From Escherichia phage vB_EcoP_PhAPEC7: DNA of 64,000 nucleotides. The stretch lies in sequence record NC_024790.1; one strand, written 5' to 3'. The notes beneath the pieces are model-generated. The model had not been told where the DNA came from, searched no databases, and saw nothing but the letters and a program-made list of their open reading frames with translations. Positions 2,545-44,399 of this stretch are shown here, in pieces; position 1 is the first letter of the stretch; each line of letters starts with the position of its first letter. The position numbers were made by a program, and so were the translations under genes.

Positions 2545-2551
2545 TCACAAC

Positions 2552-15058: not shown

Positions 15059-16729
15059 ATGCGTTACATCACCTCTCAGGATACTGGTAAGTATCCTATT
15101 GCTATCCTCGGTCATCAAATCCGAAGGGAGGAGATGATTAAAACCTACCTGCTGCCTTATGACCTAAGCATGGAAGATTTCATCTTCCTTGAACTTCATT
15201 CTGCCCCCGGCAAGAAGAAAACTCCTGCAAGGGAGATTAAGGAGTTCATTCAGCAGGAACTGCAACAAGTACTGGATGATGCAGAGACTCAGTACATTAT
15301 CTGTACCGATTCTGATTACTTTAAAATACTGACTAAAGAAGCTAAAGCAGAGGCTAACCTCGGCTATGTTTGTGACTCAGTATGGGGTAAGCAGAAGGTT
15401 ATCTATACACCTAGCTACAGACAGGTCTTTTATGATCCACCTGTAGTGAAAGCTAAGATTGCTCAGGGTATGGATGCATTACTTAACCACATTCGTGGGC
15501 AGTATGCTGAACCAGGACAGGGAATCATTGAGTTTGAAGCCTATCCGGATACACCAGAAAAGATTAAAGCCTGGCTAGACCAGTTGCTTGAGATGAATAA
15601 GCCTCTGGCTATAGACATCGAATCATTCGGTTTAAAGCACTATAACGCTGGTATAGGGACGATTACGTTCTGTTGGAGTAAGACACAAGGTATAGCCTTT
15701 AATGTGGACTACGAGCCAATTAAGGGGGCTACTGAAGCACCCTATGGGCGTATCAACAGGAATGATGTTGTTCGTAACCTGTTACGTGAGTTCTTCATTA
15801 AGTACACTCAACGGCAGATGTATCACAACATTAGCTATGACGTGTACGTGCTTATCTATCAGTTATTCATGGATAACCTGATTGATACGGAAGGCTTACT
15901 GCACGGCATGGAAATCATGCTACGTAATTGGGACTGTACTAAGTTAATTACCTATCTGGCTACTAACAGCTGTGCCGGTAATCACCTTAGTCTGAAAGAA
16001 CAGGCTCAGGAATATGCTGGTAACTATGCTCAGGATGACATTAAAGACATTCGTCTTATTCCTAATGAGCAACTGTTACGCTACAACCTCATTGATGGTT
16101 TGTGTACGTGGTACACCTACGAGAAGCACTGGGATACTCTCATTGCTGATGACCAATTAGATGTTTACAACAATATCTTTAAACCAGCCTGTGAAGACAT
16201 TATTCAGATGCAGTTAACCGGTATGCCCATGAATATGGAAACCGTTAACCAAGTAGCTGAGGAGATGGAAACTGACAGGAACCAGGCTCTGAAAACTATT
16301 CGTGAGTCTAAGCTCATGAAGAACTTCACCCTGATGCTTCGTCAGGAATGGGTAGACGATAAGAATGCTAAGCTAAAGAAGAAGCAAGTAACACTGGCTG
16401 ATTGTGACATAGTGTTTAATCCTAATTCAGGGCCACAATTACAGAAACTGTTATTTGATTACATTGGCTTACCGGTTCTTGGTCTTACTAAGAGCAAGCA
16501 ACCTGCTACTGACGGAGACACTATTAAAGCACTGCGTACACATACGCAGAGTGAAGATGTTAAGGAACTGCTCAATGCACTTATCGACTATAAACTCGTG
16601 GATAAGATTATCACTAGTTTTATACCAGCTTTCAGGAATGCCCAGCCGGGGCCGGATGGCTGGCACTACCTATTCGGCAACCTCAATCTTGGAGGCACAG
16701 TCTCCGGTAGGCTATCGGCTTCAGAGCCT
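15059..16729 (+). CDS. DNA polymerase I (family A), exon 1 with 3-5 exonuclease domain
   Basis: Exo I LAIDIESFG and Exo II YHNISYDVYVL motifs; ends inside the conserved GRLSASEP|NLQTIP motif. The computed ORF runs on into intron sequence to a stop at 16750. Confidence 0.85.
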
Positions 16730-17435
16730 AAAATAAATTGGGCTATTTAAACCATGTGAATTCAGGGGAAACCCAGACCGGGCAATCCTGAGCCAAATCA
16801 ACCATACCTGCCTTAGGAGGCACATGATGGATATCAAGAATCTGTACGAGAATACTGACCTATCTCAAGCAGAAATATCAAAGCGTTTGGGTATTAATTA
16901 CAAAAAAGTCTCTAAATATATTAGGGAGAACTACAGTAAAGAATACCGCCAAAGCAGAAATGCAAAGTCTTACCGACGCTCCAAGCTGGGGAAAAATAAC
17001 CCCATGCTCGGTAAATTCGGCAAAGACCATCACAACTACAAAGGTTTAGTATCCGATAGTAAGGGCTACTTAATGGTACTTAAACCCGATTGGTATACTG
17101 CACGCAAAGGTAGCAAACATGTTTTTGCTCACCATGTAGTGGTATGTGAGGCACTTAATATCAGTGAAATACCTAAGGGCTGGTGTGTGCACCATTGTGA
17201 TGAAAATCCATACAACAACGACTTTGATAATCTTGTATTGCTAAGTGTTCCTGACCACGCTCGGTTACACTCAGCATTGAAAGGTGCAACGACTATCTCG
17301 AAAGAGAGTACACTCATGTGGGTGGAAGCGCATGGCACGCCTTACTATCTGGCGTGATGATATAGTCTGCTCTGCATAGGAATATGCAGCAGTCGAAAGA
17401 CGGGCATGGATTAACGACCCATGCTGAACAACAGG
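16730..17435 (+). mobile_element. Group I intron in the DNA polymerase gene, carrying an HNH homing endonuclease gene
   Basis: 5-prime exon ends in U (..GAGCCU); internal guide GGGCU can pair with it. P/Q-like core elements (TGAATTCAGGGGAAACCC, GGGCAATCCTGAGCC) at 16755-16795, R-like AAGGTGCAACGACTATC at about 17281 and S-like GATATAGTC at about 17359. Intron ends in G at 17435; joining the exons restores GRLSASEP-NLQTIPSGSKY in frame. Confidence 0.75.
16824..17357 (+). CDS. HNH homing endonuclease (intron-encoded)
   Basis: Own RBS AGGAGG; HNH motif HHVVVCEALNISEIPKGWCVHHCDENPYNNDFDNLVLLSVPDHARLH; N-terminal HTH-like segment. The 3-prime coding end overlaps the intron R-like element. Confidence 0.75.
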   Translation: MMDIKNLYENTDLSQAEISKRLGINYKKVSKYIRENYSKEYRQSRNAKSYRRSKLGKNNPMLGKFGKDHHNYKGLVSDSKGYLMVLKPDWYTARKGSKHVFAHHVVVCEALNISEIPKGWCVHHCDENPYNNDFDNLVLLSVPDHARLHSALKGATTISKESTLMWVEAHGTPYYLA

Positions 17436-27113: not shown

Positions 27114-27307
27114 CCTGAAGTCGCCAGGTACTTATGGCAAACGGGTAGTAACGAACTAGTCATTCGTCAAACGCCCACCCAATTATGAGTCAGCAAGAAC
27201 GCCTTCACTTAAACTTAAACAAAAAAGCTTAACGCAATGATTATGTAGGGGTATGTAAGGATTGCGAAGAAGGAGCCAGTTAGAGCCTGGCATGACTCAC
27301 CTATTAT

Positions 27308-27381: not shown

Positions 27382-27840
27382 CCCATTCAGCAGTAACATA
27401 GTCCTGATTGCATAGCACTCTAAAGACAACACTGGTAAGACAGTCCAGTGGCTGCTAATGTATTGTTATTCCCCTCGACGGGAATTTCGCTGGAGAATAG
27501 GAACTACTTAAATCCTAGCCTGAGTATTGCAATATGTGACTATCAATCACGAGAGACGGGACGACCAGACCCCTGAAGCTGGCAATATTGCATATTCATA
27601 CAAGCCTCCCAGCTATGGGTAAATAGTACTAAGTCCCTCAGAGCCGTCACTCTGGGGGACTTTTTTATTTGAGCATTAATAATTGGATAATCAATATGAT
27701 TGATCTAATCTTAACCCCGTATGCCTATGAGGTAACGGATAACCGAGGATGTAAGTCTTTGGTATTTGCAGGTAGCGTAGCCTATAACAACGCAGTTATG
27801 TTTAAGTACAAACTCAAACCACTCTATGAGGCTAATAATG

Positions 27841-28833: not shown

Positions 28834-28860
28834 AAAGCCCCTCATTAGAGGGGCTTTTTT
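28834..28860. terminator. Terminator hairpin between convergent gene blocks
   Basis: AGCCCCTC-atta-GAGGGGCT followed by TTTTTT on the plus strand and a weaker T-run on the minus strand; sits between the plus-strand stop at 28825 and the vRNAP stop at 28864. Confidence 0.6.
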
Positions 28861-28863: not shown

Positions 28864-31800
28864 TTAGTTTACTAAGTTCATCCAAGGGTTCAGGTTGTGA
28901 GCACGAAGCCCTTGACCAAAGCCCCATGAGTAATCCAGCCCACCCTTAGCAGCAATGCTAAAGATGTTGTCCTGAATAGGTAAGCCAACATTACCAAACA
29001 TGGTAGGAGTTGGAGCCAGCATTGCCATTGCTGCATGTACCGGGTTGTTACGAATCATGGATACTGCAACTTTTGCAGAACGGATCTTAAAGTTGTAGAA
29101 CCACATTAAACCAACGCTTTCCATATACCCACGGAAGCGACCCGGCAGACGGTCATAGTTAATGAACTCTTCAGTTACACGTCCCAGTGCTTCTTCACGA
29201 GTCTTACCTTTACGCTGGGTCAGCTCATCATAGATGATTGCTTTAGCGATAAAGTCAGAGTACTCAACTGTCTTCTGGATACCCTGGAACAGAGCAGTAT
29301 CCTTAGTAATAAGTGCATAGCGACCAGCAGTACGTACAGACTTAGGTAACTTATCAGCCAGTTTCTCCATGTATTCGTGAAGTTTACCTTCGGTAATCAG
29401 GATGTCATCACGACCGATACCAGCATCTGCAATTGAAGAGAACTCACCTGCTTCTAACAGAGGCCATATACTCATACGCTTATGACTATCAGTAATGGAC
29501 TGAATCTCAGCCTTAAGTTTACGAATCTGGTTCGGGTTAGTAGCTGCACGTAATTCTGCTTCTGCATCTACCTGACGCAGACGAGATTTAAGGTACTGGT
29601 TAATCTCAGCAGTTTTCTGTGGAATGCTCTTAGCAATGTTCTTAACCGGTACACCACGAGCAACCATTTGGTAAAGGTTAGCCAAGAAGTTAACGGCAGG
29701 TACGACTACTGACTTAACTACAATCAGAGTCTTAGCTTCTTTAACTAAGTTCTGAACCAGGTTCTCACCACCCATTGTGTACTTATAAGCACGGTTGCCA
29801 AATACACCCAGCATAGCTTTCTTGAAGGTATCCAGTGTTTCCGGGGACCAACGAGAATTACCAGACCAAGCATCACCTACAGAAGCTGCACGATAACCAA
29901 GTGCATCATTAAGCATGTCACGACGCACCCACAATTCACCCTCACCGAACAAACTCTCTGCTTTCTGACGTGTTTCACTGTTCATCAGCTTAAGAGCATC
30001 AGCAGTTACTGGGTCCAGTTTAGAACCAAGAAGGTTAACGTACTGGGACTTATTAGAGGCAGACATCTTAATGTCATTCTCATACATGCTATGCAGGTTC
30101 TCAATCAGCATATCGTTGAAACGCTGAGCCTTAGCTTCTTCCACCTGACGACCACGCCATATACCAATTGCACGGGCAAGATGGTTCTCACCTTCAATAT
30201 GCTTCAGCATGTTAGGGTCAATGGATTGCTCATAGGCAACCACATTACCTTTATCATCATATACAGGCAGGAGTGGTTCATTACCACGTTCACCACGAGC
30301 CAGTGCTTTAGTGATACGGTCTACGGAAGGCTTGTCAGTGATACGACCAGCTACCATGGAACCCATCGTAAAGCCTGTGCCGAGGTCTACGCCACCAGCA
30401 GTATCACGAACGTTCTGTAGGATACCCTGTGAGAATGGAGCCTGTGCCTGTACCGGTGCGAAGTAGTAGCTACGTGCCGGACCACGGTTAGCAGAGCTAC
30501 CCTGATAAGTACCCAGACGTACATAAGATTTCTCAATCAAATCAGCAAACTGATTATCTTCAGCAACAATCAGATTAACACCCTGTTTGTTCTCACTAGG
30601 GATATGCCCTTTGTACTGGTTCAGGGTTGCACGCATATCAGATTTGGCTTTAGCCATTTCATCTTTACGTTGACCAACTAGATAAGAGGTAGCAAAGTCC
30701 ATCCCATCAACTTCTGTCTGAGCCAGTGAAGATAACATCTCACGGTCGGACTTGTTCATTGCTTCCAGTGCATACAAAGTAATCAGCTTATCCAGTTGAG
30801 CTACATCTACAGTAGAGCGAGCAGCCTGACGTTCACCCAGCATACGAGAGATTGCAGTAGCATTACGCAGCAGGTTATTACCGACTGTACCGTTAATCAT
30901 GTACTGAGCCAGTTGCTTAGATTTACGGTTAATCAGGGGCCAGTTACGACCAGCTTGCTTCTGCAAATCTGCTTCCAGCTTGTTCACTTCACGGTCAACA
31001 ATCTTCTGGTCAGATAGCAGGTCACGGATTTCAGCCAGAGACATGGTGTCACGCAGAACAGCTAAGTCAGTTTTACCCATACCAGTGTGCATTGCTTTCC
31101 ACTCATCGTTAGTCAGCTTACGGCTGAATTTAGATGCGATAGTAGTAGGCAGGTGTTCACGGAATTGCTGACGGTCTGCCTGTACCTGTGCACGAACTGC
31201 TTTAATCAAATCGTATACAGAAGCATTGCTCTTAGTACGACCGGTTAAGTCATTAATCAAGTCGTGGAAAGGTTGCCATACCTTACCCTGGTTCATTGCA
31301 GCCATAACACCTTCAGCTACGATTGCACCATTCTTCTCTGTAGCAATGGCAGCTACCAGTTGTGCAGCATGAGCAGCACCTTTTACTAATGGATTCTTGG
31401 TATTGGCTGCAACTTCACGAGCACTTTCTAAAGCACGGGTAGACAGTGCATCAATAGAATCCACCAGATACTGGTTAGCACGGTCGATAGCATTACCACT
31501 AGGAGTAGCAACGGAATCATAGAATGACTGTGCATTAAGGCTAGTCTGCATGATTGTCTGAGCCAGTGCATCCATACCTTCCTGTACGTTGGTAGCTTTG
31601 GTATCACCTGCTACACGGGCATTCAAACTAGACATTGCAGCAGTACCGATGTTAGTCAGCATTGCATCAACGGTATTCCCAGATTTCTTATCTGCTTTCA
31701 TAACAGGAATGTTAGCCAGTACATTACGCACCTCTTCACTTACCATTGCCAGACCAACAAAAGTAGGCAGTAAGGAAGAACGACCCTGTGCGTCAAACTC

Positions 31801-34800
31801 AATATTGTTAGCACCCATGATGGTATCGAACTTCTGTTGAGCATAGTAACGGTCAGCAGGGTTAGTACTATCTGGGTCAGCCATGAATGATTCAACGGTC
31901 AGGTTCTTAGTGACGTGTGCATAGTATTCCTGTGCACGAGAAAGAGCAGCCGGACTAATAGCAGCTTCAGTAGCCAGTGCAGCAACGATATTAGTGAACA
32001 GTCGCTGTTCCTGCATATTCATAGTGAAGCCATGAGCCTGAACATCACGAGTTACTTTAGTTGCATTCACTACTGCATCAGAGAACTTACCTTTACGAAT
32101 TACTTGCTGTACTGGTTCAGAACCAATGTAGTTAATAATCAGCTTATCAAAGGTCTGTCCCAGCTCTTCCAGACGAGTATTGTCACCATACGCCTTGTTA
32201 TGGAACAAGGTAGTGTCTTTGGATACAGCAGCCGTAGGAGCCTGTCCACGCATAACCACAGATGAGTTAAACAGTAAGCCAGAGAACATATCATCTGCAT
32301 TAGCAGGTGCTTTCTTGCGACCAAATACCAGACGTTTGATTGCCTCATATACAGACTGAACCATAGTTTTCAGTGCTGTGGTTTTCTTCTGCTTACCAAT
32401 CAGTTCACGGTTAGTTAAGCCCCAAGCCATATACTCATTCAGTGCAGCAGCTTTAGCCATTGCTGGTTCAATAAAGCCATTAGACAAGTGACCGTTAATA
32501 GTATTAAGTGCATCAGCATATGCTTCACGTACTGCCGGAGATTCATTCTTAACATCCAGAGTACGGAACTGGTTCATCAAGTCTTCAATATTCTGGATTG
32601 CTTCATTAGGAGTACCCTCATAGTGAGCCAGTACGGATTCAAAAGTGGAAGCATGTACCAATTCATGAACCAGAGTCTCTAAGGAAGAGGTAACTAAGTA
32701 GATGGTCTTATCATCAAAGTTAGTCCAGCCATATGCATTACCAGCTTCGGCAGCTTCAATATCTTTTGGTGCTGGGCGAGTAATGTTCTTCTCAATAGCA
32801 TAAGCATCCAGTTGAGCAGGAGTACCGTAAACAACCTTATAGTCTTTGGCAGCAAGGGATTTCTGTACTTCTTTCAATACTGCTTGCTGTTCAGGAGTCA
32901 TCTCTTTAGCCAGTTTAGAAATGGCAGTATTGGACAACAGACGTACACCAGACTTAAGTACACGACCAACCTGTTCCATCGCTGGTACTTCTTTCACTGG
33001 TTCTGCTTTAGCAGCACGTACTGCATTACGACGCTTATTTAATTCAGCATCAAACAGCTCGTTCAGCTTAGCTACTTGCTGGTCTACAGTCAGACCTTCC
33101 AGAGAAATTTTACCGTTATTCACATATGGAGCACCTACAGCAGCCATCTGGTCAACAGTGGTCTGTACCTGGTTCATTACTTTGTGGCGAATATCTACAC
33201 CCAGAGCAATATTACGTAGGTTACGTTCAATCTGTTCAGCACCTGCACGAAGTAAGTCATCGGTAGCACCCTCACGTTGGTCATATTCCAGAGCAGACTT
33301 AGCGATAGCCTGTTTGGTTTCATCTGACAGTTTGCTGAAGTCTACATTCTTCATGAACTTAGCGTAGGAGTCATAAACATTCTTGATAGGGTTCCCCTGC
33401 CAGGAAGTGTATACAGCCTCATTTGCTTTACGACTCGCATCAGTGATGTCGTTGATACCAATGTTCATACCATCAAAGATTTTCAGGGTATTCTTCGGTG
33501 CACCTTTCATAGTAGAAAGAGTCTGCATCATCATGCCATCACCAGTACCGATGGTCATAAATGGAATACCTGCAACACCTGCTTGTGAAGGAGCATAGAT
33601 GCTCATTGGCACACGCATACGGTCATCTAAGTTGGTAGCCAGTACTTGGTTAGCAACATCAGTATTCTCACTACCAGCAATGTAGAAAGTCTGTGAACCA
33701 GTCTCAATCATTGGAGCCAGTGGAGATAATGATTCCTGGATTTCATTCAGTTCTTTCTGTGTTAAGAAATCACCCTTCTTCCAGGTTGGGTCTTTTTCTT
33801 TTTCTGCCAACTTAGTCTGTACTGCTTGCTGGAACATATCCTGCAATACCAGAGACTGAATCTGAGTAGCCTTCTGCAAGTTCTCGGTAGAGTGCATCAG
33901 ACCTTCACCAACAGTATTACGAATACCAGTTCGCATTGGTTCAACGAACAGGTGGAGCATGTTCTCCTGTAAGTTCTTCAGGGCATTACCAGATACGGTA
34001 AATTTCTGAGGGTCTAACTTACCAGTCAGAGCACCATCTACCTGCTGAATAGACAATTCACCTTTACGCATAACTGGAACATTGCCTGTCAGTGCTTCCA
34101 TAGAAGTAAGGAAAGTATCCAGCATAGCCTGAGCATCAGCCTCAGACGCAGCCTCCTTACCAAACATTGCCATAGCTGGGGAAATGCTAGGGTCAGCAGC
34201 CCGTGCTTGCAGAACGTCACTGAAGCGTTCGTAGATGGTGTCAGTAATTGCACTGACCATCTTCCCAGCAATACCACGAGCACCGGAACCATAGATGGTA
34301 ATGGTCAGTGGGTTTTTAGCGATACCACGTTTCAGGTCCAGAGTACCATCTTCATTCAGATTAAAGTCTTTAATGAACAGGTCCATTAACTTCTGAAGAT
34401 GATTCATCTGGCTCATAACCGGAACGTTGTTACGGTAAGTAGTACGTAACTCATTTAGTGCTTGTTGCAGACCATTAGTAGATGCTTCATACAGGTCAAC
34501 ACTGTCATCCTGTGAACGATGTTCGTTCATAGTCTTACCGGCTTTACCGAAGAACAGACCACCTTTAGCAGTATTCTTAATCCAGTCTGGAGTGAACTTA
34601 CCCCCAGTCATTAATACCATTGCGTTAATCGGGCCGTTGGTTACACCATCAGCTTCAACGTACAGTGGAGTAGTAAAGTTGGCACGGTCATCACTGTTCA
34701 GGTAACGGGCATATTCCATCAGAGCCATGAGAGCTACGAAGGATTTGTCACCACCCAGGGAGGTCTTCAGAATATCTACTGCATCAGCAGGTAAGTGACC

Positions 34801-37800
34801 AGACTTATCGAACTCAACCATCATATCAACAGCAGGTTTCAGATTACCTTCCAGAGCCTTGGTCAACTTTTCAGACATAGCTTCACGGGACATGTTATGT
34901 ACCTTGATGCCTAATGCCTGAGCCAGTCCTAACTGGAAGTCAGAGACTGCTTGGCTGTTTTCATTACTCAAGTCAATAGTAGAGAAGGTTGGCAGAATTG
35001 CTTCACGAACCAGCTTACTGGATTGTGGGTTATTCTTACCTAGCATCTGCATACGACCTACACGGGTCATGTTGTAACCATAGTGAATAGGAGTATCCAG
35101 ACCATTCTCTTGTTCCCGTATCTGGCTGATTACACCAAACAAGGAATCATATGCCATAGACACGGACAGGTTTTTACCCTCCAGTGACTTAGCAGTGTTC
35201 ATATTCAACAGTTCTGGATTAAGAGAACCAGCACCCATCAGTTCCAGAATGTTGTCACGACCTAAAGCTTCATAGAAGTTAACCATCGGCATGTGTACAC
35301 GGAACTCAGTAGCTTGTTCAGCTTTCAGTGCAGCTTTCTGTTCCGGGGTATTTTTAACAGCAGGGTTACGTAACTGAGTTTGAGCCACGGAAGGAATGTC
35401 GTCACCGAAGTACATTTTCTCTTCTGGTTCTAAGAGGACAGCTTCCTCAATAGCAGTAGGGAATTTGTTAATGGCATCATTGTCATCCAGCTTCTCAATG
35501 GTATACAGACCAACAGTCTTATTAGAGTCTGGGTCAATCTCAGACACATCCAGCATAGACTCTTTAACTTCACCCATTTCAATGAGGGAAGACAGAATCT
35601 CTGTAGCCATTGCCATTGGGATACCTTTTGTGTAACCCAGTGGTGCATTAGGATTACGATTCAAACCCCAATAAGATTCAATCTTCTGAGCCAGTGAGTT
35701 AGTAGCTTCGACCAGAGTCTGGGCATTCTCAAACTCAGCCAGAATACCTTCTGGTAACAGAGATGCTTCCACACCAGTAATAGCAGCTACGTCTTTCATG
35801 TCTTTAATGGCAGCATTCTGTGTAGCAGTCAGTCGCCATTGCAGTCCGGCAAGTACAGCAGTCTCTAACAACTGATCATTGAACTTAAAGGTGTCACCAT
35901 CTCGTTCAACGATATTCAGCAATTTGCCACCTACCCAACGGTTAGCTTCAGTACCTTCTGCAAAACGTTTACCAACGTTCTTATTAGCAAGGAACTTAAC
36001 CAGACGTTCAGACAAAGTAGTCTTCAGAGTTTCCCCAAAGTCCATCAAGTCCTGATAACGTTTCATCACATCACTAGTGAGAGCGTTATTTTCTTTTTGA
36101 GTGAATGCCTCAAAGCGAGCAGCAGAAGACAGTGCTTGCTTAATATCAGCCAAAGGAGATTCAGAACCAATGGTACGGGACTTAGGTTCTTCCGGTAGGG
36201 TAAATGCTTTCAGGAACTGGTTCGGTGTCTTTTCATTGTTATAGACAGGGAACACTGTTTCCATTTCTGTTTTAGTTTCAGCTACTTCCTGGATGGTATC
36301 CTCATTAGTGAGGGTAGCTTCTACTGTTTCGGGCTTAGTAGTAGAGACTTCTTCTGCTTTTGGACTAGTCTCCTTAGTAGGAGCAGTCTTATTTTCTACC
36401 ACTGGTTTAGCTTTAGGCTGTACAGTAGTAGTGTCCTCTTGCACTGGTGCAGGAGTTTCATCAACCTGATTCACTGGTTCATTAGTCTGTTGAGACTGAG
36501 TGGCATCAAGACCACCTTGACGGAACTCTTTAACTACCTGGGCAACTGGCTTGTTCAGACGTGAATCCAACGAGGTAACTTTCACATGAGAAACATTAAG
36601 CTCCGGGTAAGCCGTAGCAAGTGCGTTAGCAATATCAGCTACGGTTTTGGCCTCCAGTCCTACTTGCTGGGCAAACTTAACAGACTTGGTATCGTAAGGA
36701 TTGACACCGAGGCCAGTACGACTACGTACCCATTCACGGGAAGGCGAGAGAGCCTGATAATGGACAGACTTATTCTTATCCGCATTCCCCGAAATCAGAT
36801 GCTCATTCAACGCTCCGACCTTATTCTGCATGTGCTGGGCGAACTTCATAAAGTCGCTCAGATAAGCGGAGGCCAAATCGAAGTTACCAGAGTTATACGC
36901 AGAACGAATGCGTTTCGCATGTTGCAACGCAGAGTACTGTCCTTCATTAGAACGAGACTCATCGGTTTTAATCTGTTTACTAACAATGTCCTGAGGACGT
37001 AAGCCCAGTTCTTCTGCTTTAGCGTCGAACTCACGTGCACCCTGTAACAAGGCAGCAGCAGATTGCAGGGCAGCACGTTGACGATTCCCTAATGTAATCT
37101 TACCTTCACTTGCATGTTTAAGAACCATGTTCACTGAATCTGCATCCAGTACTTCTGGAGACACATCAGCAGCCATAGCAATGTTGTTTGCTTGGGCTTG
37201 GTTAGCTTCTTCAGTAGCTTTCAGTTTACCTGCCTCAGCCTGTTCCTGAATCATGGAATGGATAGCACGGAATGCACGAAGTACTTTAGGGGTATTCTGT
37301 ACGTTAGCCATCAGGCCGGAGAACTGGTCTACGATTGCAGCAGCAGGGGAACCTTGTTCCAGATTAGCCAGAGCACCTGGGTCACGGTTAATGAAGTTAT
37401 CCATAGACATGATGTTGTCATACATCTGAATTGCAGCTTCCATTTGAACGTTAGGGTCTTCGGCAGTATTAACCAAGTCAGCCATCTTCTGAATAGCTTC
37501 TACACGGTTAGTGGAACCAGAAACAGCTTCACGGATTACTGGGTTAACTTGTTCCAATTCTACTGGGTCAAACTTCATTGCCTGAGTTAAATCAGCAGCA
37601 TACTGGGTAGCAGCAGCTTTCTCTTCTGGAGTGATATCCATTGCATCTACTGCTTCTTGTACAGTTGCTTGTGCTTGCTCTGCTTGAGCAGCAGCTTCCT
37701 GTGCAGCAGCATTAACCGTAGCATCAGCTACAGGGGATGCTTGTTCATTACGCTTAGCAACTTCTTCACCACGTTGAACCAGGATGTTAGTAAGGGGAGA

Positions 37801-39234
37801 TGTAGCTTTTGCTAATGTTTTACCAACCAGAGAAGCACCAGCCAGAGTAGTACGAAGAGTAGGACCAGCAGCAGCACCGGCAGCTTTAACAGTTGCACCA
37901 GGAGCCTGAGCAACACCAGCACTACCGAAGCCATAGAGTGCACCCAGACCTGCTTGCTCACCGACTCCCTTGAGGGTATCTCGGGATGCATCAACATTCT
38001 CTTTGATTGCAGTGTTTTGTGCGAACTGACCAAAGCCTGACTGAATACCTTCCTCTACAGTTTCACGCAGCATATTAGAACCAGCACCAGCCAGTGAACC
38101 TACCTTAAGTGGGTTAAGTTCAAATCGAGATACCAGTGGACCGGTAGCAGCAGCAACTGGAGCAGTTAAGCCAGCAGCAGTAATACCTGTTTCAGATGCA
38201 GTCTGACGACGTGCTTCATCAGGAGATAAACCATCAGCAATATGTTGTTGGTAAACAGGAGACTTACTTGCCAGTTCTTGATGGGACATCTTCATGATTT
38301 CAGAAGCAGTCTGTTGGTATGCACCACCAGCTTCCATGCCACCGATTGCAATAGCAGGTGCAACAACACGACCAGCAGACAATGCAACCTGTGCAGGGCG
38401 TGAACCTAATCCAGCAGCTAAGGTAATACCCTTAACAGCTTTATCACCACCTACCATTACTTTACCGAGTGCAGATACACCACGGATAAGTGGACCACCA
38501 GTAAAGAGGGAACCAACACCTTCACTAAGTCCGTCGGAAGCAGCCATACCATTATCAAGTGTATTAGCAACAGAATCGAAAGCATCACGACCAATACGAG
38601 ACAGGGAGGCAACCAAATCGCTCTCCCCGTTTTTGACATCTTGTTCATAGAGTTTCTGGTTCTTTTGAGCAGAAATCTGGTTCTGATTCTGAACAACTTT
38701 ACGAGTAGCATTCAGTGCATCAGATTGTAGATTGTGTACACCTTCATTCAACCAATCCATCCCGGAAGCAATGGATGCCCCGGCATTATCATTGACCAGA
38801 CCTGTGCCAAGAGCAGCAATGCCCCCAAGGGTATTAGCAACACCAAGACCAACACCAGAAAGAGTATCGCCAAATGCTTCTGCGTTAGTACGTTGTTTAG
38901 ATAAGTCCTGACGTACAACATCAGCAGCATTAGCTCGGCTATTAAGAATTTGTAGACCTTGCTCATTACCGTATTTATTAATGATTTCTAATGGGGAGGC
39001 TTGAGTGAAATCTGCCTGAAGTGAACCTGGTTCGAATGCACCGATTCCAAGATTACCTACTCGTCCAGTCTGGAGATTGTAAGCGTTCTCTGGGGTTAAT
39101 TGGAAAGGGCTTTGCCCTTGTGCAGCTTGCTTCTGGGAGGTTGCAGTAGAGACATCGACTTGCTTAGCATTAGTGATGCTGTCTGCGAAACCTGCCAGAC
39201 GGTCAAATGTTGACATAGCATGTTTCCTGTTCAA
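28864..39234 (-). CDS. Virion-encapsidated RNA polymerase (N4 gp50-like, 3456 aa)
   Basis: Giant ORF of N4 vRNAP size at the start of the late block. Contains a T7-like single-subunit RNAP motif B, R-x3-K-x7-YG (RGIAKNPLTITIYGSG, encoded at about 34283-34330), and a motif A-like YVEADGVTNGP. Confidence 0.85.
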   Translation of the reverse strand: MNRKHAMSTFDRLAGFADSITNAKQVDVSTATSQKQAAQGQSPFQLTPENAYNLQTGRVGNLGIGAFEPGSLQADFTQASPLEIINKYGNEQGLQILNSRANAADVVRQDLSKQRTNAEAFGDTLSGVGLGVANTLGGIAALGTGLVNDNAGASIASGMDWLNEGVHNLQSDALNATRKVVQNQNQISAQKNQKLYEQDVKNGESDLVASLSRIGRDAFDSVANTLDNGMAASDGLSEGVGSLFTGGPLIRGVSALGKVMVGGDKAVKGITLAAGLGSRPAQVALSAGRVVAPAIAIGGMEAGGAYQQTASEIMKMSHQELASKSPVYQQHIADGLSPDEARRQTASETGITAAGLTAPVAAATGPLVSRFELNPLKVGSLAGAGSNMLRETVEEGIQSGFGQFAQNTAIKENVDASRDTLKGVGEQAGLGALYGFGSAGVAQAPGATVKAAGAAAGPTLRTTLAGASLVGKTLAKATSPLTNILVQRGEEVAKRNEQASPVADATVNAAAQEAAAQAEQAQATVQEAVDAMDITPEEKAAATQYAADLTQAMKFDPVELEQVNPVIREAVSGSTNRVEAIQKMADLVNTAEDPNVQMEAAIQMYDNIMSMDNFINRDPGALANLEQGSPAAAIVDQFSGLMANVQNTPKVLRAFRAIHSMIQEQAEAGKLKATEEANQAQANNIAMAADVSPEVLDADSVNMVLKHASEGKITLGNRQRAALQSAAALLQGAREFDAKAEELGLRPQDIVSKQIKTDESRSNEGQYSALQHAKRIRSAYNSGNFDLASAYLSDFMKFAQHMQNKVGALNEHLISGNADKNKSVHYQALSPSREWVRSRTGLGVNPYDTKSVKFAQQVGLEAKTVADIANALATAYPELNVSHVKVTSLDSRLNKPVAQVVKEFRQGGLDATQSQQTNEPVNQVDETPAPVQEDTTTVQPKAKPVVENKTAPTKETSPKAEEVSTTKPETVEATLTNEDTIQEVAETKTEMETVFPVYNNEKTPNQFLKAFTLPEEPKSRTIGSESPLADIKQALSSAARFEAFTQKENNALTSDVMKRYQDLMDFGETLKTTLSERLVKFLANKNVGKRFAEGTEANRWVGGKLLNIVERDGDTFKFNDQLLETAVLAGLQWRLTATQNAAIKDMKDVAAITGVEASLLPEGILAEFENAQTLVEATNSLAQKIESYWGLNRNPNAPLGYTKGIPMAMATEILSSLIEMGEVKESMLDVSEIDPDSNKTVGLYTIEKLDDNDAINKFPTAIEEAVLLEPEEKMYFGDDIPSVAQTQLRNPAVKNTPEQKAALKAEQATEFRVHMPMVNFYEALGRDNILELMGAGSLNPELLNMNTAKSLEGKNLSVSMAYDSLFGVISQIREQENGLDTPIHYGYNMTRVGRMQMLGKNNPQSSKLVREAILPTFSTIDLSNENSQAVSDFQLGLAQALGIKVHNMSREAMSEKLTKALEGNLKPAVDMMVEFDKSGHLPADAVDILKTSLGGDKSFVALMALMEYARYLNSDDRANFTTPLYVEADGVTNGPINAMVLMTGGKFTPDWIKNTAKGGLFFGKAGKTMNEHRSQDDSVDLYEASTNGLQQALNELRTTYRNNVPVMSQMNHLQKLMDLFIKDFNLNEDGTLDLKRGIAKNPLTITIYGSGARGIAGKMVSAITDTIYERFSDVLQARAADPSISPAMAMFGKEAASEADAQAMLDTFLTSMEALTGNVPVMRKGELSIQQVDGALTGKLDPQKFTVSGNALKNLQENMLHLFVEPMRTGIRNTVGEGLMHSTENLQKATQIQSLVLQDMFQQAVQTKLAEKEKDPTWKKGDFLTQKELNEIQESLSPLAPMIETGSQTFYIAGSENTDVANQVLATNLDDRMRVPMSIYAPSQAGVAGIPFMTIGTGDGMMMQTLSTMKGAPKNTLKIFDGMNIGINDITDASRKANEAVYTSWQGNPIKNVYDSYAKFMKNVDFSKLSDETKQAIAKSALEYDQREGATDDLLRAGAEQIERNLRNIALGVDIRHKVMNQVQTTVDQMAAVGAPYVNNGKISLEGLTVDQQVAKLNELFDAELNKRRNAVRAAKAEPVKEVPAMEQVGRVLKSGVRLLSNTAISKLAKEMTPEQQAVLKEVQKSLAAKDYKVVYGTPAQLDAYAIEKNITRPAPKDIEAAEAGNAYGWTNFDDKTIYLVTSSLETLVHELVHASTFESVLAHYEGTPNEAIQNIEDLMNQFRTLDVKNESPAVREAYADALNTINGHLSNGFIEPAMAKAAALNEYMAWGLTNRELIGKQKKTTALKTMVQSVYEAIKRLVFGRKKAPANADDMFSGLLFNSSVVMRGQAPTAAVSKDTTLFHNKAYGDNTRLEELGQTFDKLIINYIGSEPVQQVIRKGKFSDAVVNATKVTRDVQAHGFTMNMQEQRLFTNIVAALATEAAISPAALSRAQEYYAHVTKNLTVESFMADPDSTNPADRYYAQQKFDTIMGANNIEFDAQGRSSLLPTFVGLAMVSEEVRNVLANIPVMKADKKSGNTVDAMLTNIGTAAMSSLNARVAGDTKATNVQEGMDALAQTIMQTSLNAQSFYDSVATPSGNAIDRANQYLVDSIDALSTRALESAREVAANTKNPLVKGAAHAAQLVAAIATEKNGAIVAEGVMAAMNQGKVWQPFHDLINDLTGRTKSNASVYDLIKAVRAQVQADRQQFREHLPTTIASKFSRKLTNDEWKAMHTGMGKTDLAVLRDTMSLAEIRDLLSDQKIVDREVNKLEADLQKQAGRNWPLINRKSKQLAQYMINGTVGNNLLRNATAISRMLGERQAARSTVDVAQLDKLITLYALEAMNKSDREMLSSLAQTEVDGMDFATSYLVGQRKDEMAKAKSDMRATLNQYKGHIPSENKQGVNLIVAEDNQFADLIEKSYVRLGTYQGSSANRGPARSYYFAPVQAQAPFSQGILQNVRDTAGGVDLGTGFTMGSMVAGRITDKPSVDRITKALARGERGNEPLLPVYDDKGNVVAYEQSIDPNMLKHIEGENHLARAIGIWRGRQVEEAKAQRFNDMLIENLHSMYENDIKMSASNKSQYVNLLGSKLDPVTADALKLMNSETRQKAESLFGEGELWVRRDMLNDALGYRAASVGDAWSGNSRWSPETLDTFKKAMLGVFGNRAYKYTMGGENLVQNLVKEAKTLIVVKSVVVPAVNFLANLYQMVARGVPVKNIAKSIPQKTAEINQYLKSRLRQVDAEAELRAATNPNQIRKLKAEIQSITDSHKRMSIWPLLEAGEFSSIADAGIGRDDILITEGKLHEYMEKLADKLPKSVRTAGRYALITKDTALFQGIQKTVEYSDFIAKAIIYDELTQRKGKTREEALGRVTEEFINYDRLPGRFRGYMESVGLMWFYNFKIRSAKVAVSMIRNNPVHAAMAMLAPTPTMFGNVGLPIQDNIFSIAAKGGLDYSWGFGQGLRAHNLNPWMNLVN

Positions 39235-39282: not shown

Positions 39283-39304
39283 AAAAAGCCCCGTAGGGCT
39301 TTTA
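39283..39304 (-). terminator. Minus-strand rho-independent terminator just upstream of the vRNAP gene
   Basis: On the minus strand: hairpin AGCCC-tacg-GGGCT followed by TTTTTTC; between the upstream stop at 39311 and the vRNAP start at 39234. Confidence 0.5.
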
Positions 39305-39310: not shown

Positions 39311-41275
39311 TTACCGATTTTGTCTTGGTTGCATATACTCAGGCAGTCCTTGTGCCTGACGAAGGTATCGTTCAGCACGCTCCTTGTTTTCTTTCTCAAC
39401 TGCCCGGTCTACAGAGGCCTGAGATTGAAAGTTACGTGGAGCCAGGTTAGTTGGGTCAGTCTGTACTTGTGCCTGTGCAGCTTGGAGCATTGCAGCAGCT
39501 TTAGTAACAGCCTCCTGTCGTGCAGGTAACAATGCAGTAAGACCAGTTTGTCCGGTGTTAATCTTATTCTGAGTATTTGTCAGTGCAGCTACGGCAGCAT
39601 CATATGCAGTCTGTGCTGCTTGAATATTCTGCATAGCCTGAGCACGACCAAGGTTACGTACACTACCCTCCAGTGGTTCTCCCCGTTTCACACCCTCAAT
39701 TAACTGTTCTACCTGACGGTCATTAAGACGCATACCATTACCGGCTTCATTGGTAATGAATGGGTTAACTGCATCAATAGCACGACTAATATAACCCTCC
39801 GGTACACCAGTCTGTGCACGTTGCATAACAGCAGCAGCCATAGCTGGCGACATATTCCCACGTTGGGAAATATCGTTCAGTCGGTTCAGTACCCAGTTAC
39901 GGTCAGCACCTTTAAAATCACCTTCCAGCAGACGGTTAGCAATCTCGCCTACTGGGGTATTATCAGTGACTGTACCAAGGAAGTCAGTATTAAGACTACC
40001 GGTATTATCCTGCATAGAACGTGTGCCAATCATACCCTGAGCCAGAGTAGATACTGCCTGATTACCTTGGTTATTCTGAACCATAGCGAGTGGGTCAGCC
40101 CCTACTTCAGCTTGGGCAATAACAGGTTTAATCTGTTCCCAAGTCATATCCTTATAAGCACCTGGGGTAGAGTTAGGCAGAGCAGCCCAGGTATCTTTAA
40201 GGTTGCCATTCTTACGAGCCTCGAAGATAGCCTTACCAATCTTATCCTGGTTCTCAGGAGAAAGAGGCTGGCTTTGCCAGTCTGAACCAAGAACTTTGGG
40301 AGCGAAATCTTTCAGAGTAGCTTGGTTAATCTGGAATGCCCCAACAGGCGAAGCACCTTGGTTCGTCTTCATACCATCCTGGTGTTTAATTACATCACCA
40401 ATACTCATTTGAGTAATAGGAGTAGATGTACCAGCAAACTGGTAGGTAACATCGTAAGGGGAACCCTGTCGTGTACCAGCAGTACCCGGAGCAGACGTAG
40501 CACCAACATTATTACCGTAAACACCCGGGTATGCTCGTGCAAGCATTTCCTGCAAACGTGCCTGTGCAACCGGGGACAGGTTCTTACTATATGCTTCTGC
40601 CAACAGACGGGCATCATTAGGGTTCTCAGCACCACGAGTAATCTGTGACATTACGCCCATAGCTGCCTGACTATCGGCATCATTACGCTGAGCAACACCC
40701 AAATCAAAACGGTTCTGTGCCTGATTAATAGCCTGACCACCTTGGCCTTGAAGACGACCCAGCATGTCCAATTGCTGGTCAGCAGGGAGTGCAGACAGTG
40801 CATCACGGGTCTGACTTAATGCAGCATTAATACGGTTCTGGTCACCGGACTGATAAGCCTCAGACAGTAAACGAATAGCTGGGGAAGCATTATCTAATGC
40901 AGTGTTAGTATCCTGTAAACGACCAAAGCGATATGCATTGTAGTCATTGGTTCCCTGCTGTCCTTGTTGCGTCAGTAATGTACCTGCTCGCTCATCCAGA
41001 TTCTGGAGAGTACGCTGATTTACCAGTGAAGGATCAACCCCCTGAAACAGTGCACCAGATGCCAAAGCATTACGGTATTCATTCGGGTCTTGGTACTGCA
41101 TAGCATTCATCATGACGGCATTGCCAGCCTCCTGCTTGGCAGCGTTCTGGAAATTACCCAGTGCATCACTTAAGCCGGAGGTGGCGTTACCAATCATGCT
41201 GCCAAATGTGCGAATGCTGTCACCTACTCCAGAGAAGTTAGGTGCATCAACATTACGCCATGTAATTTGAGCCAT
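39311..41275 (-). CDS. Virion structural protein (N4 gp51/52-like by position)
   Basis: 654 aa, Gln/Asn/Ala-rich; synteny only. Confidence 0.4.
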   Translation of the reverse strand: MAQITWRNVDAPNFSGVGDSIRTFGSMIGNATSGLSDALGNFQNAAKQEAGNAVMMNAMQYQDPNEYRNALASGALFQGVDPSLVNQRTLQNLDERAGTLLTQQGQQGTNDYNAYRFGRLQDTNTALDNASPAIRLLSEAYQSGDQNRINAALSQTRDALSALPADQQLDMLGRLQGQGGQAINQAQNRFDLGVAQRNDADSQAAMGVMSQITRGAENPNDARLLAEAYSKNLSPVAQARLQEMLARAYPGVYGNNVGATSAPGTAGTRQGSPYDVTYQFAGTSTPITQMSIGDVIKHQDGMKTNQGASPVGAFQINQATLKDFAPKVLGSDWQSQPLSPENQDKIGKAIFEARKNGNLKDTWAALPNSTPGAYKDMTWEQIKPVIAQAEVGADPLAMVQNNQGNQAVSTLAQGMIGTRSMQDNTGSLNTDFLGTVTDNTPVGEIANRLLEGDFKGADRNWVLNRLNDISQRGNMSPAMAAAVMQRAQTGVPEGYISRAIDAVNPFITNEAGNGMRLNDRQVEQLIEGVKRGEPLEGSVRNLGRAQAMQNIQAAQTAYDAAVAALTNTQNKINTGQTGLTALLPARQEAVTKAAAMLQAAQAQVQTDPTNLAPRNFQSQASVDRAVEKENKERAERYLRQAQGLPEYMQPRQNR

Positions 41276-41287: not shown

Positions 41288-41752
41288 TTAACGAGTTAGT
41301 TCATTAGCTGCAATGTAAGCATCAGCCGAAGACTGGTCACGATTCTCTGCTGTAGCACGACTACGAGCACGGTCTTCCAGTGCAGTGTTATAAGACTTAA
41401 TCTGGTTATTCAGGTTAGTGTTAGTAACACTCTTAGTGAAGTTCAACTGGTCTTTGGCTAACTTGTTAGCCTGGAAACCACCGTAGATATTCGCTAAGGA
41501 ACCAATTGCACCAAGTCCTAGTTGGAAAGTAGGTACGTTCATACCCAACTGATTAGCTGAACCAGATAAGAAGGAAGTTGGGGAAGCCACTCCTGTACCT
41601 GCATTCATACCAATAGCTGCACCTGGGTTATAGTTCATAGCTGGGGTATTAAAGTTCTGATTGTTATTAGACATCCAAGACATAGCAGCTGGCTGTGGGG
41701 TTTGGTTGCCTGTTAAGAATGACAAATCCATGGGGATTCTCCTGTTAAACAA
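41288..41752 (-). CDS. Hypothetical virion protein
   Basis: 154-aa ORF in the structural block. Confidence 0.35.
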   Translation of the reverse strand: MFNRRIPMDLSFLTGNQTPQPAAMSWMSNNNQNFNTPAMNYNPGAAIGMNAGTGVASPTSFLSGSANQLGMNVPTFQLGLGAIGSLANIYGGFQANKLAKDQLNFTKSVTNTNLNNQIKSYNTALEDRARSRATAENRDQSSADAYIAANELTR

Positions 41753-44399
41753 GGTCAGTATTAAGAGTCATATCAGAGTAGCTGCCAACCATGTTTAAAG
41801 ACATGTCAGCTATATCCGAACCAGTCATGAGAGTACGTGATAGAAATGAATCCATCGACTCCATTGACACAAATTGCATAGGGTCAATTACACCCTGTCC
41901 AGCAGTACCAAACATTTCTTCATACTGCTTATTGATTGCCATCATATCAGTATTGTACTGCTGCATTACATTCTCTGCTTTCTGAATAGTAGCAGCCGTA
42001 GATGCATTAATATACTGGCTAATACCATTACCTACTGAACTGGTAAGCTGCATGATGTTCTGAGCATTCATCATTTCACCAACTAAAGTAGACATAGATG
42101 CACCTGTAGACATGGCAGTACCAACGTTCATGGCCACCATTGAAGCAATAGCAGCAATGATAAAACCTAGCTTATCACCAAACAGTGAAGTGGATACTTT
42201 AGTGATAATAGATACCAGAATCATTGCAGCAATGGCGTTTGCTACAGCACCCACTATTACAGCAGCTAACCCAACAAAGCCAAGCGATGCACCAACTGCA
42301 CCGTATGCCCCAAGGATACCTGCACCACCAGCACCCATAGTGAATACGGATACAACAACAGCAACTACAACAACCACAATCTTAAAGGCAGACGATGTAT
42401 ACCACTTCTGTTTAACCTTCTTATATGAGTTCATCACTAAGTAGGAACAGGCAGTAGACAGCTGTGTACTACGAGTCAGTGACATTGAACGGTAGATGTT
42501 AGTGTGTAGTGGAATAATGAATCCACTCTCCTCTGCATCACCCATTGCTTCGGCAACATCAATGTTTACTGACTTATTTTTATATACCCTGTTGTTGTGG
42601 TTTAGCCCCAGTACCCTAAGTTTACGGTAGGTGTTGTTACCATCCTGCCAAAGCAACTCATACTCCTGCATAGAGTAAAACGTAGTAGTAACTTCCAGTT
42701 TCTTAGTCGAACCAGAGTTACTGGCAGTACGTATGTTCTTACGGGTAAGAGTTATATCTCCTGCATACCTGGCTCGAAGTTGTCCTTGTTTAGCACCAGT
42801 CCATGCTTCACCGGAATGAGTAGTTTCAGACACATAGTTCCAACCAATGGTCATGTCGTATTTGTACTGCTTATTACTATGTACCCTAAACTCTCGCTTA
42901 GGTATAACGGGGTATTCTGGCAAGGGTGGAGGTGTTCCAACAGTTTGACCTTCATGCCTGTTCCACCATTCTACGTATGCATCGACTGCATCATTTGCTG
43001 CCTGATAACCTGCAATCACTGCTTCCAGTGTGGGGTAGGTTGGGTCAGGTGGGAATGCTTCAGTAGCCATTTGAAAGAAACGGTAGATGTATTCCTTAGC
43101 AGTATCTTCCGGAGTATTAAGAGATACACCGAATGTGCCATAGATGTACTGAATATCACCTATGTCCTCATTCTTCTTAAGCTCGGTTACTACTTTATCA
43201 AGTTTACCGCCTGTAGCTTTATAGAGTGCTTTCTTACAGTGGGGGTAGATTGGGTCATTCTCCACCCATTGTTTATCATTCCTGATTGGAATGAAGGGGT
43301 AAAATCGGTTATCAGTAGCTTCAGTCTCAAACAGTGAATCGAGTGCAACGTTGCCTGAGTTCTGCTTATAGATAAGCATCTTAGGTGTACCAACAGCAGT
43401 CATCTCAGTATCCGTACGAGTAGTCTGAGATGAGTACTTACGAACCAGTGTCTCTGTAGTTGTGGTGATTGTATCTGTGCGAGTAACACCACCACCTAAA
43501 TCAACAACATTGGTTGTTACAGTAGTACTGGATTGAATCTCACCAAACTTTGTATGAGTCATTACCCTATCAGATATAACTACAGTTATATCATCTGGTT
43601 TCTCAGTGAATCCTCTGCGATAAACCTTAACGTAGGAGTTCCAGTTATCCACACTTGGTTCAGTAACAGTGCTGTCTTCATCCGGTCTACCATCAGAGTA
43701 AACAGAATGAGTCTGTATAGTCTTAGTAAGATTGGCTGTATTAGCTGTCGTATCACTTGAGATGGTAGTCCACAACAAAGTAGATGGTAAGTCATCTTCA
43801 TCATCGTAGACAGTAATCGGCCCTACTACAGGTGGGTTGGTAGTAGGGGACTTATAGAATGAGTAATCAGCATAGAGATACAAAGCACCTGGTTCAAAGT
43901 TAGTAGGTGTGAATGTAATGGTAGAACCTCCATCCAGGGAGGTCATAGTAATTTCATTGGTATCTTCATCAATGTCTACGTCGAATCGTTCCATGATTCG
44001 ACTTGGGGCATTCTCATAAAGATACTGGTCACACCATTGCTCAAAGTCAGCAAAGCCAATCTCTGCTGCCTGAACATAGACAGATTCCCCAGCAGGTGGG
44101 GTAATTTGACCCTCTATAACAGTAGGGTCAATCTTAGCCAGTACACCTAAAGAAGAACCAGCCATACCAACTTCTGAGTCATAGTGGTTCTTACTCCAGC
44201 TGGAGAACAGTCGCATACGAATACCCGGCCCATTCAGATAACTATCGGAGATAGTGTCTGCCATAGTGAATCCTGTATCAGCAACAATCTTACCGATGAC
44301 TACAGTCTTCATATAGTTTGGACGTTTGTGTATATCCCCTGCCATGTTATAGACAGAGGATGCTACGTATACTTTGGTCTTCCCACTGAATAAGCCCAT
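41745..44399 (-). CDS. Large virion protein with C-terminal multi-pass membrane segment
   Basis: 884 aa; C-terminal third has several Gly/Ala/Val-rich hydrophobic helices (KIVVVVVAVVVSVFTMGAGGAGILGAYGAVGASLGFVGLAAVIVGAV...). Confidence 0.4.
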   Translation of the reverse strand: MGLFSGKTKVYVASSVYNMAGDIHKRPNYMKTVVIGKIVADTGFTMADTISDSYLNGPGIRMRLFSSWSKNHYDSEVGMAGSSLGVLAKIDPTVIEGQITPPAGESVYVQAAEIGFADFEQWCDQYLYENAPSRIMERFDVDIDEDTNEITMTSLDGGSTITFTPTNFEPGALYLYADYSFYKSPTTNPPVVGPITVYDDEDDLPSTLLWTTISSDTTANTANLTKTIQTHSVYSDGRPDEDSTVTEPSVDNWNSYVKVYRRGFTEKPDDITVVISDRVMTHTKFGEIQSSTTVTTNVVDLGGGVTRTDTITTTTETLVRKYSSQTTRTDTEMTAVGTPKMLIYKQNSGNVALDSLFETEATDNRFYPFIPIRNDKQWVENDPIYPHCKKALYKATGGKLDKVVTELKKNEDIGDIQYIYGTFGVSLNTPEDTAKEYIYRFFQMATEAFPPDPTYPTLEAVIAGYQAANDAVDAYVEWWNRHEGQTVGTPPPLPEYPVIPKREFRVHSNKQYKYDMTIGWNYVSETTHSGEAWTGAKQGQLRARYAGDITLTRKNIRTASNSGSTKKLEVTTTFYSMQEYELLWQDGNNTYRKLRVLGLNHNNRVYKNKSVNIDVAEAMGDAEESGFIIPLHTNIYRSMSLTRSTQLSTACSYLVMNSYKKVKQKWYTSSAFKIVVVVVAVVVSVFTMGAGGAGILGAYGAVGASLGFVGLAAVIVGAVANAIAAMILVSIITKVSTSLFGDKLGFIIAAIASMVAMNVGTAMSTGASMSTLVGEMMNAQNIMQLTSSVGNGISQYINASTAATIQKAENVMQQYNTDMMAINKQYEEMFGTAGQGVIDPMQFVSMESMDSFLSRTLMTGSDIADMSLNMVGSYSDMTLNTDLV

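Follow-up and report, generated by a model that had tools for sequence, protein, structure and literature searches.

The 10.4-kb gene of Escherichia phage vB_EcoP_PhAPEC7 almost certainly encodes an N4-type virion RNA polymerase

Introduction

What does a single open reading frame of about 10.4 kb encode in the genome of Escherichia phage vB_EcoP_PhAPEC7, and does it retain what a working, injected polymerase would need? The gene lies in a stretch of 64,000 nucleotides of the sequence record NC_024790.1, and this whole stretch is referred to as the window. In the first-pass annotation, made from the sequence letters, the reading frame was assigned to a virion RNA polymerase (vRNAP) of the N4 type on the basis of its size and a readable T7-like motif. 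Here, the protein is compared with the full-length N4 enzyme, for which cryo-EM structures were published in 2026 (PMC13434306, PMC13492108), with its closest relatives and with the other members of the family.

Results and discussion

The protein is an orthologue of N4 gp50 over its full length

A phmmer search against all PDB sequences aligns the protein end to end with the full-length N4 vRNAP (query 7-3455 against chain 1-3499, 5027 bits), an entry entitled "Virion DNA-directed RNA polymerase". For the central third alone, the mini-vRNAP crystal structures 2PO4, 3C2P and 3Q0A are matched with about 1695 bits. The PHROG 2206 profile, "virion RNA polymerase", is matched with E=0 (query 25-3449, profile positions 5-3405 of 3406). 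Further, four Pfam domains that are specific to N4 vRNAP are found in the central third, vRNAP_dom_2, vRNAP_plug, N4_RNAP_helical and vRNAP_dom, with E-values from 2e-28 to 7e-101 (E=2e-28 for vRNAP_plug, PF21624); the other Pfam identifiers in the polymerase domain are PF21867, PF21894 and PF21769.

In a three-way alignment the protein is 67.0% identical to N4 gp50 and 97.6% identical to gp54 of phage PhAPEC5 (AGV99338.1), which is annotated as "virion RNA polymerase, similar to gp50 of N4" and shares ~95% nucleotide identity over the full length. With 3450 residues and homology along its entire length, the protein lies within the size range of the gp50 family (~3,400-3,600 aa). At the nucleotide level (megablast), the gene is present in 57 phage records at a coverage of at least 80%, and the best matches are Gamaleyaviruses (PhAPEC5, ST4, KKP 3715, SP5M and others) at 93-95.5% identity. 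The vRNAPs of G7C, ST4, SP5M, IME11 and other Gamaleyaviruses are likewise close to the present one, whereas N4 belongs to a different genus, Enquatrovirus.

From these matches, together with the residue-level alignment described below, we conclude that the gene, as had been proposed from the letters alone, almost certainly encodes a virion RNA polymerase, namely the N4 gp50 orthologue, encapsidated and injected, of a G7C/PhAPEC5-like Gamaleyavirus (family Schitoviridae). As far as can be read from the sequence, nothing contradicts this identity. The gene is also already known, through the 97.6%-identical GenBank entry and a well-studied, annotated family.

Two further profile searches can be mentioned for completeness. 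A weak match to phrog_19273 is seen besides PHROG 2206, and an NCBIfam scan of the whole protein gave nothing meaningful.

Strand and translation start

One uninterrupted open reading frame fills positions 28864..39234. It lies on the minus strand, which the first-pass annotation had left unstated, and comprises 3456 codons when counted from a TTG. It can be divided into two parts:

28864..39216, minus strand: predicted vRNAP gene, orthologous to N4 gp50; 3450 aa when read from the ATG; the span includes the stop codon
39217..39234, minus strand: six additional codons gained with the upstream TTG, TTGAACAGGAAACATGCTATG; probably 5' UTR with the ribosome-binding site AGGAAA (39223-39228)

The ATG at 39216 is the seventh codon of the TTG frame and encodes MSTFDRLAG, the counterpart of the N-terminus MSVFDRLAG in N4 gp50. 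The annotated start of the PhAPEC5 vRNAP is the equivalent of the same ATG. Because both N-termini agree and AGGAAA is found six bases 5' of this codon, translation most likely starts at ATG 39216, which would give a product of 3450 aa and ~375 kDa. Initiation at TTG 39234, giving a product of 3456 aa, is very unlikely: this is the earliest start codon of the mechanically defined reading frame, but nothing in N4 or PhAPEC5 corresponds to the extra residues LNRKHA, and the ribosome-binding site would fall inside the six TTG-side codons. The single gene of ~10.4 kb proposed earlier is a single reading frame, although its likely length is 3450 and not 3456 residues. Residue numbers of the present protein are counted below from ATG 39216.

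The domain layout of N4 vRNAP carries over

N4 vRNAP (YP_950528; PDB 2PO4, 3C2P, 3Q0A, 9PNQ-9PNW, 11GP and others) consists of an N-terminal domain (NTD, 1-919), a low-complexity linker (~907-1007), the polymerase domain (Pol, 1008-2104), a second linker and a C-terminal domain (CTD, 2123-3500), which is divided into the subdomains C1 (2124-2375) and C2 (2376-3500) (PMC13434306, PMC13492108). In the alignment this NTD-linker-Pol-linker-CTD layout from cryo-EM is transferred directly to the present protein:

36475..39216, minus strand: N-terminal domain, aa 1-914 (N4 1-919); glycine/alanine-rich, helical; 60.0% identity to the N4 NTD
36268..36474, minus strand: linker 1, aa 915-983; low-complexity, rich in T/E/V/P/K (from composition and alignment gaps); 50% identity to N4
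33004..36267, minus strand: polymerase (mini-vRNAP) domain, aa 984-2071; 71.4% identity to N4 1008-2104
aa 2072-2081: linker 2, between Pol and CTD
aa 2082-3450: CTD as a whole; 69.2% identity to N4
32239..32970, minus strand: CTD subdomain C1, aa 2083-2326, with an HExxH motif
32653-32667, minus strand: the HExxH motif, HELVH, aa 2184-2188
28867..32238, minus strand: CTD subdomain C2, aa 2327-3450; alpha-helical

The polymerase domain is the most conserved third in comparison with N4, and near motif C, 100-aa windows reach identities as high as 97%. In the mapping against the N4 mini-vRNAP that had been suggested as a check, aa 984-2071 align over the domain with the identity and score given above. 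The earlier statement that the N- and C-terminal thirds are without a recognisable motif does not hold. Both are homologous to the corresponding N4 domains, and a low-complexity linker, the HExxH motif and a region homologous to gp16-like internal virion proteins (IVPs) are present.

The NTD of N4 binds lipid, and a role in genome injection has been proposed for it (PMC13434306, PMC13492108). No Pfam family matches the NTD of the present protein, and a Kyte-Doolittle scan of this domain finds no classical transmembrane helix, so the membrane association reported for N4 is not readable from hydropathy here.

The linkers are where the closest relatives differ. In N4, linker 1 is 19 aa and linker 2 is 8 aa longer than here, and there are a few small indels. 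In PhAPEC5, linker 1 contains an insert of 121 aa that is not low-complexity, that is absent from both the present protein and N4, and for which a Pfam scan gives nothing significant. Several relatives whose BLAST matches are split into two to four pieces have the 121-aa insert in linker 1 as well.

Catalytic and promoter-reading residues are retained

Functional residues of the N4 enzyme are numbered in the mini-vRNAP, where residue n corresponds to residue 997+n of full-length N4; this offset was validated by finding each expected residue type in N4. The following positions were obtained from the alignment:

R1084 (N4 R119): reads -11G of the promoter hairpin in N4; identical residue and local context
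W1094 (N4 W129): stacks on -11G in N4; identical residue and local context
35053..35067, minus strand: T/DxxGR motif, TRVGR; R1388 corresponds to N4 mini-vRNAP R424
34630..34662, minus strand: motif A, YVEADGVTNGP; D1523 corresponds to N4 D559
34282..34329, minus strand: motif B, RGIAKNPLTITIYGSG; R1630, K1634 and Y1642 correspond to N4 R666, K670 and Y678
33457..33480, minus strand: motif C, IFDGMNIG; D1915 corresponds to N4 D951

The equivalents of R119, W129, R424, D559, R666, K670, Y678 and D951 are all identical to N4 and stand in the same local context. The two promoter-reading residues are found in the context GTEANRWVGGKLL.

How much weight can be placed on the motif B pattern from which the gene was first recognised? 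The pattern R-x3-K-x7-YG occurs once in the protein, and 82 of 5000 residue shuffles gave any match. Among the six translated frames of the window, motif B of the family A DNA polymerase, at 17712-17759, is matched as well, and the pattern by itself is therefore unspecific for RNA polymerases and weak evidence. What we take as decisive for the motifs is the column-by-column alignment with experimentally defined N4 residues. By this alignment the segment read earlier as motif B is exactly that of N4, although its true span is 34282-34329 and not 34283-34330, which is one base out of frame, and the segment described as motif A-like is motif A itself, aligned on N4 D559.

The T7/mitochondrial single-subunit RNA polymerase family (PF00940) has the same T/DxxGR motif, motifs A, B and C and catalytic residues. 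The generic PF00940 profile reaches only E=0.017 and 14.4 bits against a cut-off of 22, and only in the region of motif A. This sub-threshold score agrees with the limited similarity to T7 RNA polymerase outside the motifs (PMC13492108). The absence of an RNA polymerase profile match had been named beforehand as grounds for rejecting the assignment. The N4 vRNAP profiles do match strongly, but the T7-type profile stays below its threshold, and this test would mislead if T7 profiles alone were used. It is the motifs and the N4 crystal structures that support the kinship with T7 RNA polymerase, and the right-hand fold is established for the N4 orthologue (PMC4496689, PMC13492108). Unlike T7 RNA polymerase, the N4 enzyme requires single-stranded hairpin promoters, is autoinhibited by its plug, motif B loop and CTD, and is delivered pre-made from the virion.

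The hairpin promoters themselves are expected at the left genome end. The window starts at the equivalent of PhAPEC5 position 7297 and runs to the right end of PhAPEC5, and genes 1 and 2, the RNAPII genes and the early promoters fall in the ~7.3 kb to its left. Within the window, which excludes the early region, a search for the N4 P2-type hairpin (GAAGC-GGA-GCTTC, at most 2 mismatches) gave two matches, no more than expected by chance. In N4, the P2 hairpin is located upstream of gp2. Similarly, in PhAPEC5 the template strand contains the GGA-loop hairpins AGACGC-GGA-GCGTCT and GGCTGC-GGA-GCAGCC just upstream of genes 1 and 2. The GGA loops in both phages agree with the conservation here of the residues that read -11G, R119 and W129.

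The C-terminal domain contains an invariant HExxH module

In N4, autoinhibition comes from subdomain C2, which packs against the polymerase, and encapsidation depends on the CTD (PMC13434306, PMC13492108). The clasp residues D2012 and R2279 are conserved in the present protein. Within C2, tblastn finds aa 2654-3397 in 466 phage records; the matches listed are phage records of ~70-78 kb, nearly all annotated as vRNAP, and among them there is no relative from outside the Schitoviridae.

Subdomain C1 was aligned with N4 and with nine vRNAPs from other Schitoviridae genera, at identities down to 28%; the phages of these nine infect Pseudomonas, Burkholderia, Erwinia, Rhizobium, Roseovarius, Dinoroseobacter, Salmonella and Enterobacter. 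The two histidines and the glutamate of HExxH are invariant in all 11 vRNAPs, as are two glutamates located 23 and 73 residues past the second histidine. A tyrosine and an A-x-T are likewise invariant. That the CTD of N4-type vRNAPs contains a conserved HExxH was noted before (PMC13434306).

Among solved proteins, the profile built from the C1 alignment has a single further match (E=2e-7), to residues 420-561 of the 1337-residue chain 9sfn_G, "Internal virion protein". Both sequences contain HExxHAxT as well as a conserved L-E and the block E-(F/L)-x-AWGLT. By tblastn, 9sfn_G is gp37, the "internal virion protein with endolysin domain" of phiKMV/LKD16-type phages, and the reverse search from 9sfn_G returns the Schitoviridae vRNAPs of Possum, CB1 and EcP1 with E-values between 1e-4 and 2e-8. 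This relationship is in line with the earlier description of N4 vRNAP as a polymerase embedded in an IVP-D homologue, in which the CTD is the IVP-D homologue (Hardies et al., PMC4819975). Both the HExxH motif and the phiKMV-type, gp16-like IVP module of the CTD are thus already published.

Could the module be catalytic? In a Pfam scan, C1 has only sub-threshold matches to zincins (Tox-MPTase4 0.018, SprT-like 0.055, eCIS_core 0.14). An AlphaFold2 single-sequence model of C1 has a pLDDT of 47.9, which is too poor for a fold search, and a search for homologous proteins with C1 gave two fragmentary matches, too few for an alignment-based model. It can be speculated that the C1 module, with its invariant HExxH and additional glutamates, is a working metal-dependent hydrolase and not a fossil motif, a reading that we consider unlikely.

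The homology of C1 to the gp16-like internal virion protein of phiKMV-type phages also raises the question whether the protein is kept solely as a structural ejection protein, with an inactive polymerase centre. An ejection role could indeed exist without polymerase activity in a protein built around an IVP-D homologue. However, the equivalents of the catalytic residues (D559, D951, R666, K670, Y678 and R424) as well as those of the promoter-reading residues are intact, and the polymerase domain is better conserved than the domains on either side of it. A purely structural role is therefore highly improbable.

The ejection-gene neighbourhood and virion residence

The vRNAP gene is surrounded by the following features:

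28834..28857, strand not assigned: terminator-like hairpin, bidirectional, located between the vRNAP gene and the gp49 homologue that converges on it; also annotated in PhAPEC5
39284..39303, minus strand: terminator-like hairpin separating the vRNAP gene from the gp51 homologue; the PhAPEC5 annotation has it at the equivalent position
39311..41275, minus strand: gp51 homologue, directly upstream of the vRNAP gene and co-oriented; 48% identity to N4 gp51 over 643 aa; phrog_6126
41288..41752, minus strand: gp52 homologue; 59% identity to N4 gp52; phrog_2646
41745..44399, minus strand: gp53 homologue; 63% identity to N4 gp53 in the C-terminal portion compared; phrog_2220

Downstream of the vRNAP gene, in convergent orientation, is a homologue of gp49 with 85% identity to N4 gp49. 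The homologues of gp49, gp51, gp52 and gp53 flank the gene in the same order as in N4, i.e., the synteny of the ejection genes is intact, and PhAPEC5 has the same neighbours, terminators and orientation. In N4, gp51 is the periplasmic-tunnel ejection protein, gp52 the outer-membrane ejection protein and gp53 the tail plug (PMC13434306). N4 gp50 likewise has the catalytic, plug and promoter-reading elements, the HExxH in C1 and the operon with gp51 and gp52.

From the homology with N4, and from mass spectrometry of Moo19 virions, the protein is expected to reside in the virion. Virion mass spectrometry was positive for vRNAP in Moo19, a phage of the same subfamily, and in B2 (PMC11654681), and the Moo19 vRNAP is 67.1% identical to that of N4. 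As residence in the virion is not directly observable in a sequence, one could also picture a cytoplasmic T7-like polymerase joined to unrelated domains that is synthesised only after infection and never enters the virion, but this deserves hardly any credence given that the gene belongs to the late (minus) strand and directly follows the gp53-gp52-gp51 ejection and structural genes, that the CTD needed for encapsidation in N4 is 69% conserved, that the Moo19 vRNAP was detected in virions, and that PhAPEC5 and N4 have separate RNAPII genes for middle transcription in the left-end region, beyond this window.

A model for the start of infection

For the predicted virion-packaged polymerase, the analysis provides full-length orthology, intact catalytic and promoter-reading residues among those checked, the domain layout and the synteny of the ejection operon, all as read from sequence comparison. 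The mechanism in this phage would then follow the N4 paradigm (PMC13434306, PMC13492108, PMC4496689). A few copies of vRNAP would be packaged in the capsid via the CTD. On infection, once gp52 and gp51 have left through the tail, the protein would follow them with its domains strung on flexible linkers like beads, and the NTD would associate with the inner membrane and anchor it. Until a promoter is bound, plug, motif B loop and CTD would together hold the central T7-like polymerase domain in an inactive state. The promoters would be single-stranded DNA hairpins with a stem of 5-7 bp and a 3-nt loop containing -11G, which supercoiling would extrude at the left end of the genome. Transcription of the early genes by vRNAP would then pull in more of the genome.

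Two other systems help to place this family. T7 gp16 and the phiKMV gp37-type IVP-D, the largest podophage ejection protein, occupy the equivalent place in a three-gene ejection set. These proteins contain a lytic transglycosylase and no polymerase, while the present protein contains a polymerase, and Pfam detects no muralytic domain in it. In the crAss-like phage phi14:2, gp66 is also a giant virion-packaged polymerase that is ejected for early transcription (PMC13434306). However, gp66 has a two-barrel fold akin to RNAi-type and multisubunit RNA polymerases, not a T7-like one, and no sequence relation to it is seen here.

What the gene means for the phage and the family

The finding has little import beyond a correct annotation, as it adds one more 67%-identical N4 orthologue with all functional residues kept. 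The family is of interest in itself, with a 375-kDa enzyme threaded through a tail channel of ~30-35 Å, a biology described for N4. The one wider point touched is the possible function of the invariant HExxH module. If C1 were a hydrolase, its target during ejection or once inside the host might be, for instance, the envelope, the ejectosome or vRNAP itself, whose polymerase would thereby be released or silenced; this would be a property of the whole Schitoviridae vRNAP family and nothing special to this phage. For the genome at hand, the vRNAP gene marks the window as that of a Gamaleyavirus (N4-like), and the phage, like N4, should begin infection with its own injected polymerase, independent of the host RNA polymerase.

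Modules of the C-terminal domain shared (C1) or possibly shared (C2) with other phage proteins

The C1 module of the vRNAP C-terminal domain, which carries HExxH and is encoded at window 32239-32970 (-), has detectable homology to gp37 of phiKMV/LKD16. A C1 profile matched residues 420-561 of PDB 9sfn_G, a central segment of the gp37 internal virion protein, with an E-value of 2e-7, and reciprocal tblastn finds the vRNAPs of Schitoviridae (E from 1e-4 to 2e-8). A relationship to internal virion protein D (IVP-D) has already been published (PMC4819975), and the C1-gp37 homology is consistent with it.

A secondary match of the whole vRNAP was to phrog_19273 (E=7e-25), a profile of 4846 positions whose function is not annotated. 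Here, vRNAP residues 2654-3397 (window 29026-31257, -) align to profile positions 4037-4801. This suggests that the C2 region may be common to vRNAP and another family of giant phage proteins. A tblastn search of residues 2654-3397 against phage genomes gave, among the matches listed, Schitoviridae-sized genomes only.

An insert in linker 1

The vRNAP of PhAPEC5 (KF192075) contains a 121-aa insert within linker 1, at residues ~965-1100, and the same insert is present in the relatives E20, Bas96, F22 and Uz-1, whose BLAST matches to the window vRNAP gene fall into 2-4 pieces. The window protein lacks the insert at residues ~972-982 (window ~36270-36300), as does N4 vRNAP. The insert looks folded and its sequence is not of low complexity; a Pfam scan gave no match for it.

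A split DNA polymerase gene

The gene for the family A DNA polymerase, a homologue of N4 gp39, lies at window 15059-18344 (+) in two ORFs, with a free-standing ORF between them:

15059..16750, +, first part of the DNA polymerase, 563 aa, PF00476 positions 11-128
16824..17357, between both DNA polymerase ORFs, free-standing HNH endonuclease, 177 aa
17421..18344, +, second part of the DNA polymerase, 307 aa, PF00476 positions 124-303

Motif B of family A DNA polymerases, RSDSKAPTFLLTYGGT, is found in the second polymerase ORF. Among Gamaleyavirus-type relatives, the full-length HNH insert is present only in PhAPEC5 and Shigella phage Moonfish; it is 99.9% identical to that of PhAPEC5, and the flanking DNA is about 95% identical. 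Relatives of the insert at 73-76% identity occur in phages of about 41-45 kb from Pectobacterium, Providencia, Klebsiella and Acinetobacter, and in Providencia phage PS3 the match falls under features annotated as DNA polymerase and HNH endonuclease. The insert looks like a sporadic homing element.

tRNA gene and right end

The window has a single tRNA gene, which lies where a gap separates the replication genes from the gp48 homologue; PhAPEC5 has a tRNA gene annotated at the same place:

27307-27385, +, tRNA-Ile with the unusual anticodon AAT

The last ~885 bases (63117-64000) extend beyond the part matching the right end of PhAPEC5. They match some other relatives only (NAN33P5, ST4 and 24-32N), at lower identity; the right end is variable here and consists of small ORFs.

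Probable early promoters

Two template-strand hairpins are found in PhAPEC5 (the corresponding region of PhAPEC7 is outside the window):

PhAPEC5 147-161, template strand, directly upstream of gene 1, 6-bp stem and GGA loop
PhAPEC5 431-445, template strand, directly upstream of gene 2, 6-bp stem and GGA loop

These hairpins, which are analogous to P2 of N4 (N4 559-571), are likely to be the vRNAP early promoters of Gamaleyaviruses.
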